Positions 2,434-59,248 of a stretch of 64,000 nucleotides of DNA are shown piece after piece. The number at the start of each line of letters is the position of its first letter. Positions within the stretch are counted from its first letter, which is position 1. Both the position numbers and the translations under genes were made by a program. Origin of the DNA: Isurus oxyrinchus (lineage: Eukaryota); NCBI GenBank assembly GCA_026770705.1, contig JANJGN010000026.1:35092001-35156000 (forward strand). Direction: 5' to 3'. The notes beneath the pieces were generated by a model. The model made no database searches. It had not been told where the DNA came from and saw nothing but the letters and a program-made list of their open reading frames with translations.

Positions 2434-2609
2434 ACTGTAATATAATTCCCCAGTTGCTGCCCGCCCGTTCTTCTTCAGCGCTGCCTTTATTTTGATATTT
2501 TATTAAAAGTTTGTGATCCTTTCAGTCCGAGCTATTGCTTCCATTTATCGGTGTGAGTGCGCCCTCTTCTGAGCACTAACCGGAACTGGGATCCGCTGTA
2601 TCTCTGCAG

Positions 2610-3027
2610 CATGGCACAGAACTATATGGCACTGTCGGAGAGGAGAACCCCGGCGATATTTAAAGGAATCATTTTATTTCCTTTGTGCAAAACAGCTGAG
2701 AACCTGTCTGGGGAATCTGGAGACTTCTCTGCATCCCCCAAGCGATATATCTTCATTAAATATCTCGGAGCTTCCCCGGGATACTGGATGTACCAGAACA
2801 GAGTTGAAACAGCAGCTGTCGAGTAATTACAGTCCTGTTTTATGCTCTGTCCTTCCAGAACCGTTAACTCAGGGGGATCTTGGGAAACTGAATTTTTACC
2901 ATTTGTTCCTGCAACAAAGCACAGAATGTATCAAATATCTGGGAGTAAAGATAACGCAAGTAATGGACACTGACCATTTAAGCATTGACTCACCGGGCAG
3001 CAAGCCATTATTAGCAGTAAGGAACAT
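2610..3027 (-). pseudogene. TCR alpha/delta V pseudogene
   Basis: Leader 2994-3027 (G|GTGAGT); exon 2610-2908 reads GTNGKNSVSQDPPELTVLEGQSIKQDCNYST...LFWYIQYPGEAPRYLMK...DRFSAVL...DSAI*FCAM; TAG stop; RSS heptamer deleted. Confidence 0.9.
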
Positions 3028-6122: not shown

Positions 6123-6849
6123 ATTTTGCCCCATTGTGCTTGAGTTTACTCTTCGCATGGGCTATCCAATTAATCCCACGTCTCCGCTCTTTCCCCAAAC
6201 CTCCAAAAATTGCTCCTTTACATGTTTGAAACATTATTCAGTTATTTCATTTAGAAAAAGAATGAAAGAAACATATTCTGAAATAGAGGCATTCATTTCA
6301 AATACACGTTGTTTTATTATAATTGTTACGATGAACAATCGAGATATTGTAATGTAAAGGTATGGTAAAAATATTTCACTGAGCAGATCCCCACAGTTTC
6401 TCTGATCTCATCTGCAGCTTGCACTCTCCCATTCTGCTCAAGCCTGTCAGTCAGGCAGCCCCCATTTCATTCATATGATAAGTGGAATTGGTCTAAGTGA
6501 CCATGTCGCTTTAGTCAAAGCCTTCAGAGCGCACTGGTCCTCTATATCCACCTTTATATTAGGTTGTGTTTGTCTAATTCAACACGGCATTTTATTCAAA
6601 TTCTTCTGGGTACACTGGTCCTCTATACCAACATTTCTATTAGCTGTGGGTAGCTGCACAGATCAGCTCTTTTAATGGGAGGCTCCGGCACTGCTACCAG
6701 CACAATATGGACTACTTCTCTTCACTCCATCCACCTCAGAGACTGAAACAGTTGGAGGGACAACATTGTGTTGAATTCCTGTCCAGTTCCCTGTTCCATT
6801 GATTGCTGGCCGCTCGGATGTCATAAATTGGAGGATAAAGGAGCTCTCA

Positions 6850-7014: not shown

Positions 7015-7526
7015 ATGTCGGTTATTACTTTTTGTTCGTTCCTCACAACTGCAGCTCTCGTAACTGGTAAGCTTACAGCTGCAAAATCTCCTTGCAGGCA
7101 ATGTGTTCTATGTTCACTATGTTTTGTCTCTGTTTCTAATATGCCCCGTCACCTGATGTTATTAAGTATATTAAAATGATGATAAAAGCTTAACGTTCTG
7201 TGTTTCTAAATTTCTACAGGTGTTAATGGTGCAGATTCGGTATCACAGGAGCCGCTTATAGCGATACATTTCGAAGGACATTCGATGACCATTAATTATA
7301 GCTACTCGGGCACTTATAGCTCATATTCGTTACAACTGTACCGTCAGGACCAGGATAAAGCCCCCAAATTCTTGATCTACATCTCTAACTACGGGGATGT
7401 TGTCAGAGCAGAGGGCGTAGGGATTCGATTTTCTGCATCGATCGACACTTCGAAAAGTGAGGGGAATTTCACCATCCGTGACTTGCTGCTGTCTGACAGC
7501 GCGGTGTATTACTGCGGGCTGAGAGA
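7015..7526 (+). CDS. Intact TCR alpha/delta V segment with non-canonical core (Tyr23, Leu41, Cys104)
   Basis: Leader 7015-7066 (G|GTAAGC), exon 7220-7526: MSVITFCSFLTTAALVTGVNGADSVSQEPLIAIHFEGHSMTINYSYSGTYSSYSLQLYRQDQDKAPKFLIYISNYGDVVRAEGVGIRFSASIDTSKSEGNFTIRDLLLSDSAVYYCGLR; no stops. Confidence 0.92.
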
Positions 7527-7565
7527 CACAGTGACAGGAACCAGAGGGAGCCCCGTACAAAAACA
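7527..7565 (+). other. 23-RSS
   Basis: CACAGTG-23 bp-ACAAAAACA. Confidence 0.95.
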
Positions 7566-15643: not shown

Positions 15644-16094
15644 CTGCAGGAAATATATTTCTATTTAGCTGCCATGATTTATTTCTCAGGTTCCGGGTGA
15701 CAGGCCGATTTTGGGGCATAGACATAGTGAAGTGACATCGTTTAATTGAATATCGCTCTTGGCTCTTATAGGACATTGTGGAGGAGGCTCTGTTTCACAG
15801 ACACTGGCTGCAGTCACAGTGAGTGAAGGAGACGATGTTCAGCTGCTCTGTAATTATACAGCTACAAGCAGCGTCAATCCTTATCTATTCTGGTATCGTC
15901 AGTATCCCAGCGGATTCCTAGAGTATCTACTGAAGAGAAACAGATACATGGCTAACACAGAGATATTTCCCGGAGACCGTTTTTCAGCGGAGCTCAATGA
16001 AAGTGTCTAAAACAGAATTGTCATGCTCTGCGGTGTATCACTGCACGCTGTACCCCACAGACACACAGAGCAGGGCTGAACCTGTATGAAAACT
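15644..16094 (+). pseudogene. TCR alpha V pseudogene with RSS
   Basis: Exon from 15772 reads GGSVSQTLAAVTVSEGDDVQLLCNYTATSSVNPYLFWYRQYPSGFLEYLLK...DRFSAELNESV*; FR3 deletion; leader starts CTG; RSS CACAGAC-23-ATGAAAACT at 16056-16094. Confidence 0.9.
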
Positions 16095-17994: not shown

Positions 17995-18567
17995 AACCCT
18001 GTCTGTGAAACAACGATTCTCAACTTATTCTGGAATATTGCTGCATGATATTGGTGGATAATTATTATGGCATCTTATTATTTTTTTTTGCTCAGATTTT
18101 ATTATTACTGCACCTGATGCCTTTTTTCATCTTTTGCTTTTGCTATATGTGCTATTTCATATTAGTTGCAAGATTATTTGTCTGTTTTCCGACATGCCTA
18201 CGTCATTAGTACAGTGCATGTCATTTGCACACATAGATGAGGTTCTCATTAATAAATTCATAAACCCACAACTTATGAGGTTGGATTGTAAATTTCTAAA
18301 GAATGGAATGCTTCTAAGCCCCCTAATCATAAAACAGGAATGTCAACCAAATTTCAATAAGCGAATGTATCAGAGTATTTTTCTACGATTAGGAATAAAA
18401 AAGTGAAATTTTACGGCAGTAATTTCTTCGTATGATCAACTTTGCGTTTTCCTTTTACCGATTTCACTTCCATCACACTAACTTCTAAAGCCCATGGGCT
18501 TATTTTCTCCTCAGTCCCCATGTTGAGTGAATTATTGTATAGCTCCTCCTCCCCTTATTTCACCATG

Positions 18568-19390
18568 CCTCTCTGTACTGTAATACACGCAGCGTCTGAC
18601 AGCTGAACCGTGTCAACAGTGACAGTGATGGAGCTTTTCTCACGGTCCACCCCTATTTTAAACTTTCCCTCAACTCTTTCATTGCTGTAAGTGGAAACGA
18701 GATACTCGGGAGCTTGATTGGAGAATTGCCGTTACCAGAATACAATATCATTTTTCGTGAATATAACATTGTGATGAAGCAAAATGGTTTGTCCAACAGT
18801 TTCCCAAAACATCGATATCTGAAATGTCTTCCAGTGACAAGGAACAACTGCGAAGACATGAATAACATTAGCTTTATGACACAAGAGTGGATAAAGCACT
18901 TGCGGATTTTGGCAGAATCTACTAATCTGTCTATTGATCTCTCTCTATCTATTTATTTATCTGCATCTCTACATTCCGATCTATCTATCTATTTGCATAT
19001 CTATGTATCTCATCGTTTATGAATCTTTCACACGGATATCTACTATCTTGGTCTCAGAGAGGCAGAGTTATTTCACTGTTTATCTCTTTACTTTGAACAA
19101 ACAAATATCGGAAATTCAATTTAATATTTTTTGATGCTCTTCATCTGAGCCAACGTAGAGCCACCAGTCCAGTTCAACCCTTTGATCTTCCCATGACTCC
19201 ACCTACTTAGGGTGTGAGCTCTGATCCTCACACCAAACGGCTGTGAACAAAAGAAAAACCACTGAACCACCACGGGGGTACCGACAGATTGGTTAAAAAC
19301 AATACCGCTGATGAGATAAATAAACTCACACAATATCAACAGCAATAGGGCTCCAACTGGAATCAGGTCTTTGCCGGAGTTTCTGTTCAT
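18568..19390 (-). pseudogene. TCR V pseudogene of the family lacking both cysteines (His23, Ser104)
   Basis: Leader 19330-19390 MNRNSGKDLIPVGALLLLIL; exon 18568-18847 reads ...GQTILLHHNVIFTKNDIVFW*RQFSNQAPEYLV...DAA/VYYSTER; RSS CATGGTG-22-ACAATAATT. Confidence 0.85.
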
Positions 19391-31554: not shown

Positions 31555-31874
31555 AGTTCTAGTGCAGTCTCCTCCCCTCCGTAACTCCACGTGTTTCACT
31601 GCACTGCTCTACACCGTAGCAACTGGGAACTGAACCGAGTGAATGGTAAGAGTGGTAGAGCCTTTCATATGGTCCACAGATACTTTAAATCTTCCTTCAA
31701 CTCTTTCATCACTGAATATGGAGAAGAGATGCTCTGGGGTCGCAATTAGAGAATTGACGGTGCAAGAATATAAGTTCATTTGCAGAGAAAGTAGAGTTAT
31801 GGTGAAGCAAAATGATTGTCCTTGCGTTCCCGATAAACCAATATCAGAATTTGTTTCCCAGTGACAAGGAGTAG
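31555..31874 (-). pseudogene. TCR V pseudogene of the family lacking both cysteines, with RSS
   Basis: Exon 31594-31874 reads ...GQ/ILLHHNSTFSANELIFLHRQFSN...ERVEGRFKVSVD...ATV*SSAVK; RSS CACGTGG-23-ACTAGAACT. Confidence 0.85.
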
Positions 31875-32621: not shown

Positions 32622-32660
32622 GGTTTTTGTACGGGGTTCTAGCTGTGATCTAACGCTGTG
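32622..32660 (-). other. 23-RSS
   Basis: CACAGCG-23 bp-ACAAAAACC. Confidence 0.92.
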
Positions 32661-33189
32661 ACTCATTGCACAATAATACACCGCACCGTCCTCCACACTC
32701 AGTTCGCTTATGTTGAGGTAACCGTTCTTTTGAGACATATCAGCAGCTGCCAGATACCGTCCTGAAATTTCATTTTTCTTCAGTGCTAAGGCATTGGTAA
32801 TAATCCATGTTAGTGGCTGTGCCGTCTGCTGCCGATACCATTGCATGTAGTTTAGATTCCGATCTGTATATTCACAGTCTAATTGCACCGAACCCCCTTC
32901 CGACGCCGTTATTGCGACCGGGGACTGAGTTACTGGATCTGCGCATCGTCCGCCTGTGAGGTAGAGGAATGAAATATCAAGTGGTTAAACAGTGTTGATC
33001 TCAATTTGTTTGTAGCTGTTTGGGTTTGCAGAACCTCCTATCTACCTAGCTGTCCATACTATGGATATTTCTGATCGTGAATTCTATTAAATACTATCGC
33101 CGTCTCTATACACTAATCTACCGATCTGCCTTGATTAACTAAATCCAGTACTTACTGTCGAACAGCGCCGTCAGTATTATCAGCAACAT
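32661..33189 (-). CDS. Intact TCR alpha/delta V segment
   Basis: Leader 33156-33189 (A|GTAAGT), exon 32661-32953: MLLIILTALFDSGRCADPVTQSPVAITASEGGSVQLDCEYTDRNLNYMQWYRQQTAQPLTWII...LSVEDGAVYYCAMS. Confidence 0.92.
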
Positions 33190-35740: not shown

Positions 35741-36248
35741 ATGTTGTCTGTTCATTCTTCACAGCTGCGATTCTCTTAACTGGTAAATAGCCAAGTTACG
35801 CAATTTTCATTTTGCAAGCTATACTGGCACAGTGATCTTCCTTTTAACTATGTTTTCCCTTTATTTGTAAAGGGCTCCGTTAACATGATAACCCTGATTG
35901 TAACAGTGATAATAAAAAGTTGAAGTTCTGTACTTTGAATTTTCTGCAGACTCGGTGTTACAGGAGCCGGTTGCAGGGGCACAGTTTGAAGGAGACTCGC
36001 TGACCATTAATTTCAGCTATTCGACCACGATTGGTTTCTGCTTCTTGCAACTGTACCGTCAGGATGACGAGAAAGCCCCCACAATATTGACCTGTATCCC
36101 TTCCGCTGGGGTTGTTTTCACTGCAGAGGGCGCGAGGGCTTGATTATCTGCATCTCTCGACACTTCCAGAAGTGAGGAGAATTTCGCCATCCGTGACCTG
36201 CGGCTGCCTGACAGCGCGGTGTATTACTGCGGGCTGAGAGACACAGTG
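35741..36248 (+). pseudogene. Pseudogene of the Tyr23/Leu41 family (Phe23 here)
   Basis: Frameshifted leader; exon 35950-36241 reads DSVLQEPVAGAQFEGDSLTINFSYSTTIGFCFLQLYRQDDEKAP...ARA*LSASLD...DSAVYYCGLR; CACAGTG at 36242, nonamer lost. Confidence 0.9.
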
Positions 36249-37307
36249 ACAGGAACCAGAGGGAGCCTTCCTCGTAGAGGAACACTGCAGAAACGTGACC
36301 CGTTGAACGGAATGGCGGGTAGAGTGGGGAGGAACAAAGACTTTCAAAGCATCTAACCGGAATGTGCTCATTGAAAGTAAATCCAAATAAGTAACAACCG
36401 GCTAGCAGCAGGTGCGGCATTTCGAAATTTTCCATTTACATTGAATGCATTCTGAACATCATGTAAATTGTGTTCAGAAAATTCATCCCATTTTGTAAAT
36501 GAGAGGTACAACGGCAGAAATGCTGAGCAAAGTAGTTGACCTTATGTTCCAGCCGGTACAGGGGGTACATACAACACAAATGCAGCATCGGTTATATATC
36601 ACTGAAGGGACGCGCAGCAAAGAAGAACAAAGGCTTTGCATTTTCATGAAGCCTTATCTGGTGTGTTCATATTTCCCAAAGCGCATCCAGTGCTCAAACT
36701 TTCTGACATTGTTAAAAAAAAAGCTTTAGTATTCAGTCGGTTGTCTGAACATCTGTTCCGGTGCCTAAGACACAGCAGCCTGTCCTTGTCGATTATGCAA
36801 TCTATTAATCATTGTTCATCAGCTTCTAATCATGTCTTGAAAATAACCTCTTTGTGCCTGTTTATATTATAGATTCTTAATTTCAATATATGGAAGCAAC
36901 TAATATTGAGAGATATTTAATGAGACCATTATCTTTATTCGGATCCTCCTCACCTGGTGGCCTTATGTCCCACAACTGGTTATTTCAACTTAAAAGAGAA
37001 ACATTTGTTCCTTTGCCGTGAGTTCTTTCATAAACAGCAGTGCACCGATATAAATGGATCCCGGCCACCTTCATGTGTTTGTATTCTCAATGGATATGGC
37101 GACCACTGAGACATTCCCAAATAATCAACAGGATTTTGCCCCACACATTTAATACAGTAATCAGACTGAATCAATATTCAATGTGAGCGATTTTAGATGG
37201 TGCTTATGTGGATTGTGTCCGTACATGATGGACTGACGTGTCAGTGTCCGACCCGCTGTTATAAACATCCCTCAACAGACACCAGCTGTGCCCCAGAAAA
37301 CTGCAGC

Positions 37308-37346
37308 AGTTATTGTGCGAGGTTTTCTCTCGTTCCCATCACTGTG
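37308..37346 (-). other. 23-RSS
   Basis: CACAGTG-23 bp-ACAATAACT. Confidence 0.92.
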
Positions 37347-38387
37347 AGACTCTGTGCACAGTAATAGACCGCGGCGTCAGACAGCCGCAACTCCGAGATA
37401 GTCAATCGGTACGACTTGTCCGTCTGCTGGACTGTATCAGAAAACCGGCTCTGAGCGAAATCCGCCTTAAATTCTGAACCGCCGCCCGGGAGCCTCCGGA
37501 CTGCAAACTCGGGCTGTCTGCCTGGGTACTGCCGGTACCAGAATAAGTAATAGGCATCGTCGGTATAGGTGCAGTTTAAAGCGACATCTTCTCCCTCTGT
37601 CTTTGTGACTGAGGATTCCCGCTGAGTAACAGAAACTCCATCGCTCAGATCTGGAACACACGGTTAAAGAAAGAGGAAATCAGCGATTAAAACTTTCACG
37701 GAACAGAACTGAGGGTGAAAATTCACAGCCAGTGTTACATATATTAAATGTAATTTCGAGCATACAACAGTTCATTCGGCCTAAATGGTCCATCTCCGTG
37801 TTTCCATCCCCGAAGAGCATCCTCACTCTCTTAGCAAATCCTTCCAACCTTTTCTTCCTCTTCCACTTATCTCGTTTCCCTTCATTAAAACTAGAGTCTT
37901 TGTCTCAACTGCTCCTTGTAGCATTGAATTCCTTATTCTAAAAAGTAAAGATAATTGTCATGGATCCCCTATTGAGTCCTTTTCGTGACTCTTATATTTA
38001 TAACTCATACTTTAGAAATCCTCCACAAGTGGAATTATATTTTCCGTCGAACTCCTTAATCATTTTGAAGACCTCTATTCGGTTCCGCCTCAGTTTCTCT
38101 TTACCAGAGGGTAGAACCCCAGTCTGTACAGTTCTTGCTGAATTCCAGTACCATAATTGTAATTGGATTTCTTTTCATTTTCTTTTGTGGTCTGTGTTCG
38201 TCTGATTAAAGACCAGAACACTTCCCCATAAATCCAAGTGTGGTCCGATCAAGATCCTAAACATGCTTAACATGAATTTTCCGCTTTTTAAATTGATTCT
38301 CCCAGAAATTAAGCCCCTTTTTCAAATTTTAAACTTCTTACCGACAATGAATGTGACCCAGACCACAGCGAGAACGGAGAGCCGCAT
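37347..38387 (-). CDS. Intact TCR alpha/delta V segment (not in the ORF track)
   Basis: Leader 38342-38387 MRLSVLAVVWVTFIV (G|GTAAGA); exon 37347-37650: DLSDGVSVTQRESSVTKTEGEDVALNCTYTDDAYYLFWYRQYPGRQPEFAVRRLPGGGSEFKADFAQSRFSDTVQQTDKSYRLTISELRLSDAAVYYCAQS. Confidence 0.93.
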
Positions 38388-41104: not shown

Positions 41105-41143
41105 GGTTTTTGTGTGGAGTCCGCTTTTCTCTGCAGCAGTGTG
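41105..41143 (-). other. 23-RSS
   Basis: CACACTG-23 bp-ACAAAAACC. Confidence 0.92.
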
Positions 41144-41616
41144 GATCTCATGGCACAGAAATACACGGCGGTGTCAGAGATCACGACCTTACCGATCGTT
41201 AGCTCGGTGTTCTTGGCTGTTTTATCGAACGCAGAATTGGAGCGGGCAGCCAAACCTGGGTTGCGGTTTATTATCCCTCCAATAATATAAAACATTTTCT
41301 GTGGAGGCTCCCCGGGGTGCTGACTGTACCAGAGCACAGTAGGATTACCAACGTTTGTTTTTAAGGTGCAGTTTAGGGTGAGATTGCCTTCCTCTTCAGC
41401 AACCTTTTCAAGAACCGGCTGTTCCACTTTGTCTTGGCGGCTCAATTCTAACATAATTTAAGAATAAGAGACATCGATATTGTTAACATCATCATCATTT
41501 CACAAAGCAGTGACATCTGGGTGAGGGTGTTTCTGGGAATAATGAATTTTTCGTGGGCGTGAACACTTACTGAGAAGGGATATAACGATGAGGAGCAGTG
41601 TGAGACAGTTCTGCAT
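41144..41616 (-). CDS. Intact TCR alpha/delta V segment
   Basis: Leader 41571-41616 MQNCLTLLLIVISLL; exon 41144-41447: KLSRQDKVEQPVLEKVAEEEGNLTLNCTLKTNVGNPTVLWYSQHPGEPPQKMF...ISDTAVYFCAMR. Confidence 0.92.
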
Positions 41617-45287: not shown

Positions 45288-45884
45288 ATGTCCATCCTGC
45301 TCTCACTCACTTATTAGGGGACTCAGAGCCCTCTTCCAGGGAGATTGTTATCAAGCTCCCAGTTCTTTGATGATGGCAGAAACTACAAATTGTCACCCTG
45401 TCTCTCAGAAGGCTTTTCTATGATCCTTATTGCGAGGTAACACCTTGTGTCTCCAACGAACAGGAATTGGTGGCACCGTCTGTCACTGAAGTGTCGCTAA
45501 CATTCAGAACACTTCACTATGCTAAATTGGGCGAAGCTTTGATCCTGTTTCCATCGCTAGTACTTGTCGCCAGGTGCTGCACTGTTCAGTCTGGATATTG
45601 TCTGTACCATTGTTGGATCCGCCTTGCTACAGTGATAATACAGGTCAATGATACAATGTCCCCTTCTGCAACAGCCGCTGACTGTCATGTTCCATCACTG
45701 CCAGTTACATTAGATATAATGTCGCATAATTAGTAAAATATAACGCAACTCCTTATAACATACAACAATAAAATATAAAATAACAAAATACAAGTTGATA
45801 GAATACAGGAAAATGCAATCCAACAGGATATAGCATAACTATATTTTATATATATGTACATATATATACATAAATATATTTAGA

Positions 45885-52358: not shown

Positions 52359-52852
52359 ATGCGGCTGCTCAGCACCTGGGTTGTGTGGGGAACATTTCTG
52401 ACAGGTATTTGTGGAAGACACATATTTCGTCTCTATTTTTCTAATTTCCCACACACCTTTTAAATGGTCTGATTTTTGTTTTCTGTTTCAGTATGTTGTT
52501 CAGATCAAATTCATGGAAATTCTGTACGAGCCGCTGTCCTCAGGTGCCAGGGCAGAAGGAGAAGCGGTGACTTGAACCTGCAGCTATCCTACGACACAAA
52601 GCAGCTATTCACTATACTGGTACAGGCAACATCTAGGCGCCCAGCTCCAGTTTTTATTGCTGAAATCTACGAACTGTGAATCTCTTAAGAAAAAACAGAT
52701 TTTGCCCAAATCCGTGTCTCAGTGAAACTCCAGACCTCCGCGAAATTCACTAGTTTAACCATCTCGGCTCTGCAGCTGCCTGACGCTGCCTTGTATTGCT
52801 GCTCTCTCAGACTCATAGCGAAGAAAAACAGTCTCACACCTGTGTATAAAAC
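52359..52852 (+). pseudogene. TCR alpha V pseudogene with decayed RSS
   Basis: Leader 52359-52404; exon from 52504 reads AEGEAVT*TCSYPTTQSSYSLYWYRQHLGAQLQFLL...LQLPDAALYCCSLR with frameshifts; CATAGCG at 52814. Confidence 0.9.
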
Positions 52853-54584: not shown

Positions 54585-54623
54585 TGTTTTTGTAGGAGTC
54601 TTCCCCTGGTTCCTGTCACTGTG
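54585..54623 (-). other. 23-RSS
   Basis: CACAGTG-23 bp-ACAAAAACA. Confidence 0.95.
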
Positions 54624-55126
54624 TCTCTCAGCCCGCAGTAATACACCGCGCTGTCAGACAGCCGCAGGTCACGGATGGTGAAATTCCCCTCACTTTTGGA
54701 AGTGTCGAGAGATGCAGAAAATCGAGCCCCCACGCCCTCTGCTCTGAAAATATTTCCGTATTTCCGGATGTAGATCAAGAATGTAGGGGCCTTACCCCGG
54801 TCATGACGGTACAGCTGTAAGTAAGGTGCATCAGCAGTGGTCGAATAGCTGTAATGAATGGTCACCGAGTCTCCCTCAAATTGCATCGCTGTATCTGGTT
54901 CCTGTGAGACCGAGCCTGCACCACTAACACCTGCAGCAATTAAAAATAAAGAGCTTTAAGGTTTTATTACTTCAGCCCAGTTTATCATGTTGAGTGAGGG
55001 ATTCTGAATAGAAATAAAACTGAATTGAAACAATGATACCTGCAATAGGAAGATTGTGTAACGTGCGGACTTACCGGGTAAGAGAGCTGCAGCTGTGAGA
55101 AAAGAATAGTAGGTAAAACCCAACAT
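54624..55126 (-). CDS. Intact TCR alpha/delta V segment with non-canonical core (Tyr23, Leu41, Cys104)
   Basis: Leader 55075-55126, exon 54624-54930: MLGFTYYSFLTAAALLPGVSGAGSVSQEPDTAMQFEGDSVTIHYSYSTTADAPYLQLYRHDRGKAPTFLIYIRKYGNIFRAEGVGARFSASLDTSKSEGNFTIRDLRLSDSAVYYCGLR. Confidence 0.92.
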
Positions 55127-57597: not shown

Positions 57598-58836
57598 CTG
57601 TAATCCAGAGACCCAGAGTAATGCCTTGGGTTCGAATCCCGCCACGGCAGGTGTTGGAATTTTAATGCAATAAAAATCTGGAATTAAAAGTCTGATGATG
57701 GCAATGAATCACTTGTTGATTGTTGTAATAACCCATCTGGTCCACTAAAGCCTTTTAGGTAAGGAAATTTGTCGTTCTTACCTGGTCTGGCCTACATGTG
57801 ATTCCAGACCCACAGCCATGTGGTTGACTCAAATGCCCCCTGAGATGGCCGAGCAAGCCATTTAGTTATGAACAAGGTCACAAAGTCACAATAAAAGGAA
57901 TGAAACCAGACGAACCTCCCAGCATCGACTTAAACACCGGAAACAACAACATAAACTCGGTCCTGTCAACCCTGCAAAATCCTCCTTATTGATATATCGG
58001 GTCCGTGCCAAAATTGGGAGAGCTGTCTCAAGGTCTCGTCAAGCATCACCTGACATAGGCTGATCATCCGCACCGAATCATACCTTGCAGATAATGTCCC
58101 AGACACCAAAATTACTGGCAGGGAAGGCCCAGCAGAGGTGGGGGCACAGTTGTATACAGTCGAGAGTTACCCTGGGAACCCTTAGCATTGACTCCGGGAC
58201 ACATGAAGTCTCGTGGCATCAGTTTAATCATGGGCCAAGGAAACATCCTGTTGATTACCATGTATCACTCTCCCTCAGCTGATGAATCAGTGCTCCTCCA
58301 TGTTGAACACCACTTGGAGGAAGCACCGGAGGGTGGCAAGGGCACAGAATGTACTCTGGGTGAAGTACTTCAATGTCCATCACCAAGAATGGCTCGGTAG
58401 CACTACTACTGAATGCGCTGGACGAGTCCTAAATGATGTAGCATCTAGACTGGGTCTGCGGCAGGTGGTGAGGGAACCAACAGGAGGGAAAAACTTTCTT
58501 GACCTCATCCTCACCAATCTGCCTGCTGCAGATGCATGTGTCCATGACAGTATTGGTAAGAGTGACCACCTCACAGTCATTGTGGAGACGAAGTCCCGCC
58601 TTTACATTGAGGATACCATCCATCGTGTTGTGTAACACTACCACCGTGAACAGATCTTGCAACTCAAGACAGAGCATCCATGAGGCTAAGTGGGCTATCA
58701 GCTGGAGCAGAATTGTACTTAAAAACAATTTGTAACCCCACGGCCCCGTATATCCCCCAATCTACCAGTATCATCAAGCCAGGGATCAACCCTGGTTCAA
58801 TGAAGAGGGAGGACATACCAGGAGCAGCACCAGGCT
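57598..58836 (+). mobile_element. tRNA-SINE-like head continuous with a CR1 APE endonuclease region
   Basis: B-box GGTTCGAATCC at 57629; FNVHHQEWLGS...REPTGGKNFLDLILTN...IGKSDHLTV endonuclease motifs. Confidence 0.8.
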
Positions 58837-58953
58837 GCCCTATGTAGATAGATAGATAGATAGATAGATCAGTTTATATTGCCTAAATCCACGGGCACTT
58901 TATTTAATTCTGCTTCCAATATCATTAAGTTGATTTTATTGTTGTTTTGGCAG

Positions 58954-59190
58954 TTGCTCTTTGTCACTCGGATATATTTCAGATATCGATATATCGGAGG
59001 GCTTTCAGGCCAGAAATTTGGTTTCCTGTACTGACCATTCCTCAGTCAAGCTCCCGAGTGTCTTACCTTCACATATAGAGACAAAAGAATTGAGGGAAGA
59101 TTTAAAGTATCTGAGGACCGTGAGAAAGTCTCCACCACTCTCACTGTTAACACGGTTCAGCTGTCAGACTCTGTGGTGCATTACACTGCA
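58954..59190 (+). pseudogene. TCR V pseudogene of the family lacking both cysteines
   Basis: FLY*PFLSQAPECL...RIEGRFKVSEDREKVSTTLTVNTVQLSDSVVHYTA; FR1/CDR1 deletion; RSS position occupied by (CA)n. Confidence 0.85.
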
Positions 59191-59192
59191 CA

Positions 59193-59248
<56 letters not shown>

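Follow-up and report, generated by a model that had tools for sequence, protein, structure and literature searches.

For a V to count as functional, the Cys23-Cys104 bond of conventional TCR alpha/delta V segments (IMGT V-REGION) is regarded as obligatory, so that annotation rules discard segments without it as pseudogenes. This disulfide is important for V-domain stability, and Ig V domains without it can work if they are intrinsically stable (PMC5734687). The examples given in that source are the VH of ABPC48, where one cysteine is missing in one antibody, and an engineered scFv, doubly cysteine-free, derived by laboratory evolution (PMC5734687). As to gene layout, TRD L-V-V units of the newt Pleurodeles waltl consist of one leader exon before two V exons, and sharing of the leader was confirmed by amplicon and IsoSeq reads; cysteine loss is not described in the parts of that report drawn upon here (PMC12698447). 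In NAR-TCR, a supporting V-delta with an extra CDR1 cysteine follows a rearranging NAR V-D-J cassette (PMC1845163). The elements reported here constitute a real, apparently undescribed variant, the old cysteine-free second V of L-V-V units in a shark TCR alpha/delta locus. Unlike ABPC48 and the scFv, they form a germline family without both cysteines, common to shark species. No earlier description of such a family was found in the literature searched; the main nurse shark TCR repertoire papers lie beyond that search, so that a prior mention is possible.

The analysed stretch, hereafter the window, covers 64,000 nucleotides (contig C26, 35.09-35.16 Mb) of the 5 Gb genome of the mako Isurus oxyrinchus. 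It contains three paralogous V exons, copies A, B and C of the family called V2, identity being 70% between A and B and 79% between A and C (shared part). Copy A (18568..18847, minus strand) features His23, Trp41 and Ser104; it is a pseudogene, with a stop at codon 42 and a 1-nt deletion in FR3. In its degenerate RSS (18530..18567, minus strand) the heptamer starts with CAT, not CAC, and the nonamer is still recognisable. Upstream of it are found the truncated 5' remnant of an ordinary V, V1a (19151..19240, minus strand), which precedes V2 as a whole exon at loci L011, L017 and L022, and a leader exon of 61 nt (19330..19390, minus strand; phase 1, GT donor). The latter is the sole leader found in this L-V1a-V2 unit, and is part of the truncated ordinary V, not directly of copy A. 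Copy B (31594..31874, minus strand; His23, Leu41, Ser104) has one frameshift in FR1, another in FR2 and a stop at position 102, and its RSS (31555..31593, minus strand) is degenerate. About 750 bp upstream lies V1b (32622..32953, minus strand, exon start approximate), an open ordinary V with Cys23, Trp41, Cys104 and a 23-bp RSS. Copy C (58954..59196, plus strand, end approximate) features Leu41, Thr104, a stop and a 39-nt deletion spanning position 23, and a CA microsatellite occupies the position of its RSS. LINE-like sequence (about 58000-58840) is located directly upstream of copy C, with no V1 within 2.4 kb.

These data agree with a preliminary description of the window, which had read codon 104 as AGT, AGT and ACT in copies A, B and C, never as Cys, codon 41 as TGG, TTG and CTG, and the codons around position 23 as CAT CAC AAT in A versus CAC CAT AAC in B; it had also reported all three copies to be pseudogenes with differing lesions, as direct inspection showed them to be. 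Copies A, B and C are dead. Beyond that description, the analysis revealed a family of at least 73 alignable copies, in which V2 is located just behind the RSS of another V.

Several V exons with a 23-bp RSS are present in the window. A separate family, with Tyr23, Leu41 and Cys104, is open at 7230-7565 (plus strand) and 54585-54920 (minus strand), with near-perfect 23-bp RSS, and a broken copy with Phe23 is found at about 35945-36275 (plus strand). Its identity to V2 is about 31-35%, which argues that Cys23 was lost independently. Two more ordinary V exons, open and each with a 23-bp RSS, are located at 37308-37640 and 41105-41440 (both minus strand), and broken V remnants near 2604-2890 (minus), 15790-16040 (plus), 45454-45669 (minus) and 52640-52810 (plus).

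A DNA search of the same genome produced 45 matches (40 of 112 candidates were scored), and a protein search 146 matches, other V families included (150 of 792 scored). The alignment comprised 77 copies: 30 loci from the DNA search, 5 from the protein search, 40 further fetched, and window copies B and C. Removal of 4 copies with a non-homologous 5' part left 73, a lower bound on family size in which some copies, those on unplaced contigs, may represent second haplotypes; 41 of the 73 are less than 97% identical to each other and are referred to as non-redundant.

Position 23 is His in 47 of the 73 copies, deleted in 17, Tyr in 3, Ser in 2, and Cys, Asp, Asn or Arg in one each. Position 104 is Ser in 52, Thr in 9, Asn in 6, Arg in 4, Ile in 1 and a gap in 1, and position 41 is Trp in 30, Leu in 30, Cys in 10 and another residue in 3. 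Evaluation by IMGT-style functional-V criteria (PMC12529555) therefore found Cys104 in 0/73 copies and Cys23 in 1/73, and neither residue in the two close protein relatives described below (P0001 and P0002). The only copy with Cys23 (TGT; L024, C26 near 24.518 Mb) is otherwise broken and has a third kind of V before it; the residue is either a retained ancestral state or a reversion, and the copy groups weakly with P0002, a His23 sequence. A close cysteine-bearing parent family was not found among 16 weaker matches and in the neighbourhood of L011, the best identities being 29-42%.

V2 has the sequence of a V-set domain: the top ESM Atlas clusters are TCR alpha V (0.96), and PDB entry 6uln_D is matched with an E-value of 1.1e-8. 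The AlphaFold model shows seven strands at a mean pLDDT of 89; 20 of the 24 alignment rows are cysteine-bearing V, and the model says nothing on stability. Since the nearest look-alikes are TCR alpha V clusters, and the only close protein relatives come from sharks, the window, with its several V exons, was read as a shark TCR alpha/delta V region. V2 shares with the conventional segments, human TRAV4 chains being among the nearest solved relatives, the V-set look-alike, the predicted V-type strand pattern, the phase-1 acceptor, the leader tail, Trp41 (in 30 of the 73 copies), the D-x-A-x-Y motif and a 3' RSS with the 23-bp spacer of TCR alpha/delta V, complete in L011, and it is interspersed with ordinary V genes. 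It differs from them by His23 and Ser104, by having no own leader found and by the fact that nearly all copies are broken.

The frame from acceptor to heptamer is broken in 70 of the 73 copies and open in three, L010, L011 and L025. Both AG and CAC are lost in L010; L025 has a poor nonamer and no leader match. L011 (C26 near 28.277 Mb) is the only copy in which every part is kept, i.e. open frame, AG acceptor, CAC heptamer, 23-bp spacer, recognisable nonamer and intact upstream leader; it carries new Cys residues at positions 40 and 103, and the nonamer of its V1a is damaged. The V2 family in the mako genome is almost wholly dead. Seven non-redundant copies with short branches, copy A and L011 included, make up a slow 'core' clade. 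Trp41 is retained in all seven, versus 8 of the 34 other non-redundant copies, and is found in P0001 and P0002 as well; a CAC heptamer is present in 5/7 core and 22/34 other copies. Frame, acceptor or heptamer has been lost in 6 of the 7 core copies.

A V1 with Cys23, Trp41, Cys104 and its own RSS was detected upstream of V2 in 66 of 77 loci (V1a in 40, V1b in 26), and a truncated V1a in 4 more, copy A among them. V2 follows the RSS of V1, at 283-1534 bp where both exons are whole, and has its own acceptor and its own 23-bp RSS. A leader-like exon with a GT donor between V1 and V2 was not seen by eye in the aligned intervals of 16 loci, in the part of the alignment viewed, nor was a D or J found in the gaps inspected. 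V2 starts with a signal-peptide-like tail, and thus probably once had a leader. The V1 leader is phase-compatible with the V2 acceptor, yet every V leader is of phase 1. Trees of V1a and V2 have 12 of 15 splits in common, compared to at most 3 in 2000 shuffles, which indicates that the two were duplicated together; only 3 of 16 splits are common to V1b and V2. L095, related to copy C, has a V1b 1.5 kb upstream, whereas its sister copies follow V1a, which suggests exchange between units. At L073 (C242 near 257.6-258.4 kb) one V1b is followed by two V2 copies in direct tandem.

The unit resembles the newt TRD L-V-V units in having one leader exon before two V exons; for V2, sharing of the leader is deduced from the layout, whereas reads document it in the newt (PMC12698447). 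Like the NAR-TCR supporting V-delta, V2 is apparently leaderless, has its own acceptor and RSS, and is placed in the same locus. Unlike it, V2 is preceded by a plain V whose RSS has a 23-bp spacer, not by a NAR V-D-J cassette, is devoid of the conserved CDR1 cysteine, and has lost the canonical cysteines.

Relatives in other sharks came from profile searches, a single-sequence protein search having given no match. A profile of the three open copies detected two proteins at E <1e-30 among 1.84 billion representatives. P0001 (XP_067869830.1, from the horn shark Heterodontus francisci) comprises a leader, the greater part of V1a and a V2 that is open and has His23, Trp41 and Ser104; P0002, from a 1252-base contig, agrees with it at all three positions. 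XP_038644554.1 (P0154), from the catshark Scyliorhinus canicula, emerged when longer proteins were searched, and is composed of V1a and then a His23 V2 piece, the 5' part of which is in a shifted frame. Best identities to the mako genome are 73% (P0001), 62% (P0002) and 66% (XP_038644554.1), and these are thus genes different from those of the mako genome. Horn sharks and catsharks belong to different orders; the presence of the unit and of His23 in both argues that unit and cysteine loss predate the split of these lineages. The earlier proposal that the cysteine-free state is older than the separate inactivations is supported by these models and by its occurrence in nearly all 73 copies, despite clade-specific lesions. 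Matches from coelacanth and cobra were rejected as relatives, since both are weak, the former being an ordinary multi-V model. V1a is itself an unusual short-CDR V family, common to mako, horn shark and catshark. The catshark model also includes an IgH chain, fused to the V1a-V2 unit, which suggests an IgH cluster beside TCR V segments on the contig, in agreement with the IgH-TCR linkage reported elsewhere (PMC12227049).

The reading preferred here, held at roughly even confidence, takes V2 for an ancient TCR alpha/delta V of sharks, devoid of Cys23 and Cys104 and located behind an ordinary V in an L-V1-V2 unit, which likely once worked and is likely dead in the mako genome. In a working unit, V2 would recombine to a J via its own RSS, the promoter of V1 would drive transcription, and splicing would carry the V1 leader past the unrearranged V1 to the phase-compatible acceptor of V2. 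The product would be a chain lacking the internal disulfide in its V domain. With His and Ser at its core, such a domain would be expected to be destabilised, which counts against this reading. According to this history, most V2 copies would have died early and multiplied as passengers in duplications of V1 and the unit, and one lineage would have been constrained longer and relaxed later.

Alternatively, V2 was already dead when its cysteines were lost, and is a very old pseudogene that persists owing to the slow change of shark DNA and to being copied with its neighbour; this is a possible, although somewhat unlikely, explanation. Several measures of selection among present copies fit it. 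The codon model gave an omega of 0.996 over the 41 copies, as for neutral evolution, site rates are nearly uniform (gamma shape 7.4), and the ratio of branch lengths at positions 1+2 over position 3 is 0.93 on terminal branches and 1.05 on internal ones; the latter value, in which internal branches are summed, reveals no constraint and counts against a once-working V2. NG86 ratios within and between clades (0.79, 0.87, 0.76) agree with those of neutral simulations (0.82, 0.79, 0.80). Within the core clade, omega is 1.28 and divergence is 0.133 at positions 1+2, 0.134 at position 3 and 0.123 in the flank; deep flank distances (0.44-0.47) look inflated by misalignment and were left out of deep comparisons. 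Without counting indels, a neutral copy at 0.07-0.25 substitutions per site would have a 15-52% chance of remaining free of stops, so that the three open copies need no selection. The failure to find an own leader, the frameshift at the 5' end of the catshark piece and the slow evolution of sharks (PMC10587355) point the same way. The neighbouring families gave omegas of 0.74 (V1b, 20 sequences) and 0.87 (V1a, 19 sequences), pseudogenes included in both; omega thus separates V genes from dead ones weakly, and lesion load is the stronger sign of death.

The preliminary description had considered that intact homologues all bearing both cysteines, or a dN/dS near 1, would refute its reading. The former were not encountered, the open sequences L010, L011, L025, P0001 and P0002 being without both cysteines; the latter was, as the omega of 0.996 indicates. 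It had also taken the three synonymous codon differences between copies A and B as a mark of coding constraint. This argument does not hold, because the omega of 0.58 for this pair is matched or undercut by 13.5% of 200 neutral simulations. Past constraint is indicated instead, for one lineage and for the horn shark, by another signal, which was chosen post hoc.

Measured from the family root, the core clade has a depth of 0.095-0.099 at positions 1+2, versus 0.19 for clades C and D; at position 3 the values are 0.14-0.16 and 0.15 (core-depth bootstraps, 0/300 and 3/300). These slow positions 1+2, at equal position 3, suggest past protein-level constraint on the core lineage. The core stem measures about 0.03 versus 0.08-0.10; a test of whether its positions 1+2 fall below position 3 does not reach significance, the order being reversed in 10% and 6.7% of bootstraps. 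With the horn shark as outgroup, private amino-acid changes average 8.2 in core copies versus 21.6 in the others, the difference holding in 236 of 238 non-independent pairs. The V2 branch of the horn shark (0.157) does not exceed its V1a branch (0.176) in length, and the 14 differences of this V2 from the column majority have a mean BLOSUM score of +0.5, found in about 1-2% of matched neutral simulations; this comparison concerns one predicted protein, visible because it is open, at the protein level only. Both the constraint tests and the core clade were chosen after the tree was seen, over 85 codons, and the case for the core stem is made from distances only. Taken as a post hoc signal, these data provide moderate support for past protein constraint on V2. 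An already dead V2 leaves unexplained why the core clade is slow at positions 1+2 and not at position 3, and why the horn shark branch is short, conservative and open. It would also imply that at least 3 base changes, within the six bases of the two Cys codons, led to His23 and Ser104 with frame, Trp41, acceptor and RSS intact, as the colinear and open L011 and P0001 suggest.

Present use of V2 in the mako through its one complete copy is improbable. L011 is open from acceptor to heptamer, with RSS and upstream leader intact, and units of this type seem to have active promoters. Evidence for the latter was derived from the assembled contigs of seven runs (X7, X9-X14; run types guessed), placed at 80% likeness. 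X9 contigs, assumed to be RNA, at L101:6046-6202 and 6298-6586, cover a V1a-family exon which leaves the germline at its 3' end, and join a leader to V1a, with 19 letters on the short side. They suggest rearrangement and transcription of the leading V in such units, and on their account the promoters of the L-V1-V2 unit type appear active. The V2 exon itself lies under 0 contigs of those seven guessed-type runs, in which contigs drop rare transcripts and neighbouring V exons have thin cover at most, in X9 and X11; this blank was given no weight. The clade of L011 has been neutral since its radiation (omega 1.28, as above), and against current use stand also the losses in the other six core copies, the new cysteines of L011 and the damaged nonamer of its V1a.

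It is very improbable that V2 serves as the second, supporting V of a two-V chain, joined by splicing to a portion of V1, as in NAR-TCR and the RefSeq models: V2 is an apparently leaderless V behind another V, like the NAR-TCR supporting V-delta (PMC1845163), and V1a is joined to V2 in both public gene models, but such a role appears to fail on layout and on the CDR1 cysteine, given that the V1-V2 gaps inspected yielded neither D nor J, that V2 has a signal-peptide-like tail and no CDR1 cysteine, that its identity to a supporting-type V in the mako genome is 42% over 64 residues, that the catshark model also contains an IgH chain, a kind of chimera typically produced by automatic prediction, and that the horn shark model exits V1a before the second cysteine, so that the first domain would be incomplete.

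Under the preferred reading of V2 as an old, likely once working V, a further step can be proposed only tentatively, and we consider it rather unlikely: at least one living shark, most likely the horn shark, or the mako via L011, would express a TCR alpha/delta chain with a disulfide-free germline V (His23/Ser104), the leader of the neighbouring V being spliced over that V, and the family would be conserved across shark orders. The open V2 of the horn shark makes the question of expression testable in lymphoid RNA of this species. If V2 always was dead, it would be a clear case of a pseudogene maintained in different shark lineages and, as a passenger, duplicated dozens of times. If V2 worked without the disulfide, it would represent a natural exception and a model for stable disulfide-free Ig domains, as well as a second example, in a TCR locus, of V exons that share a leader.
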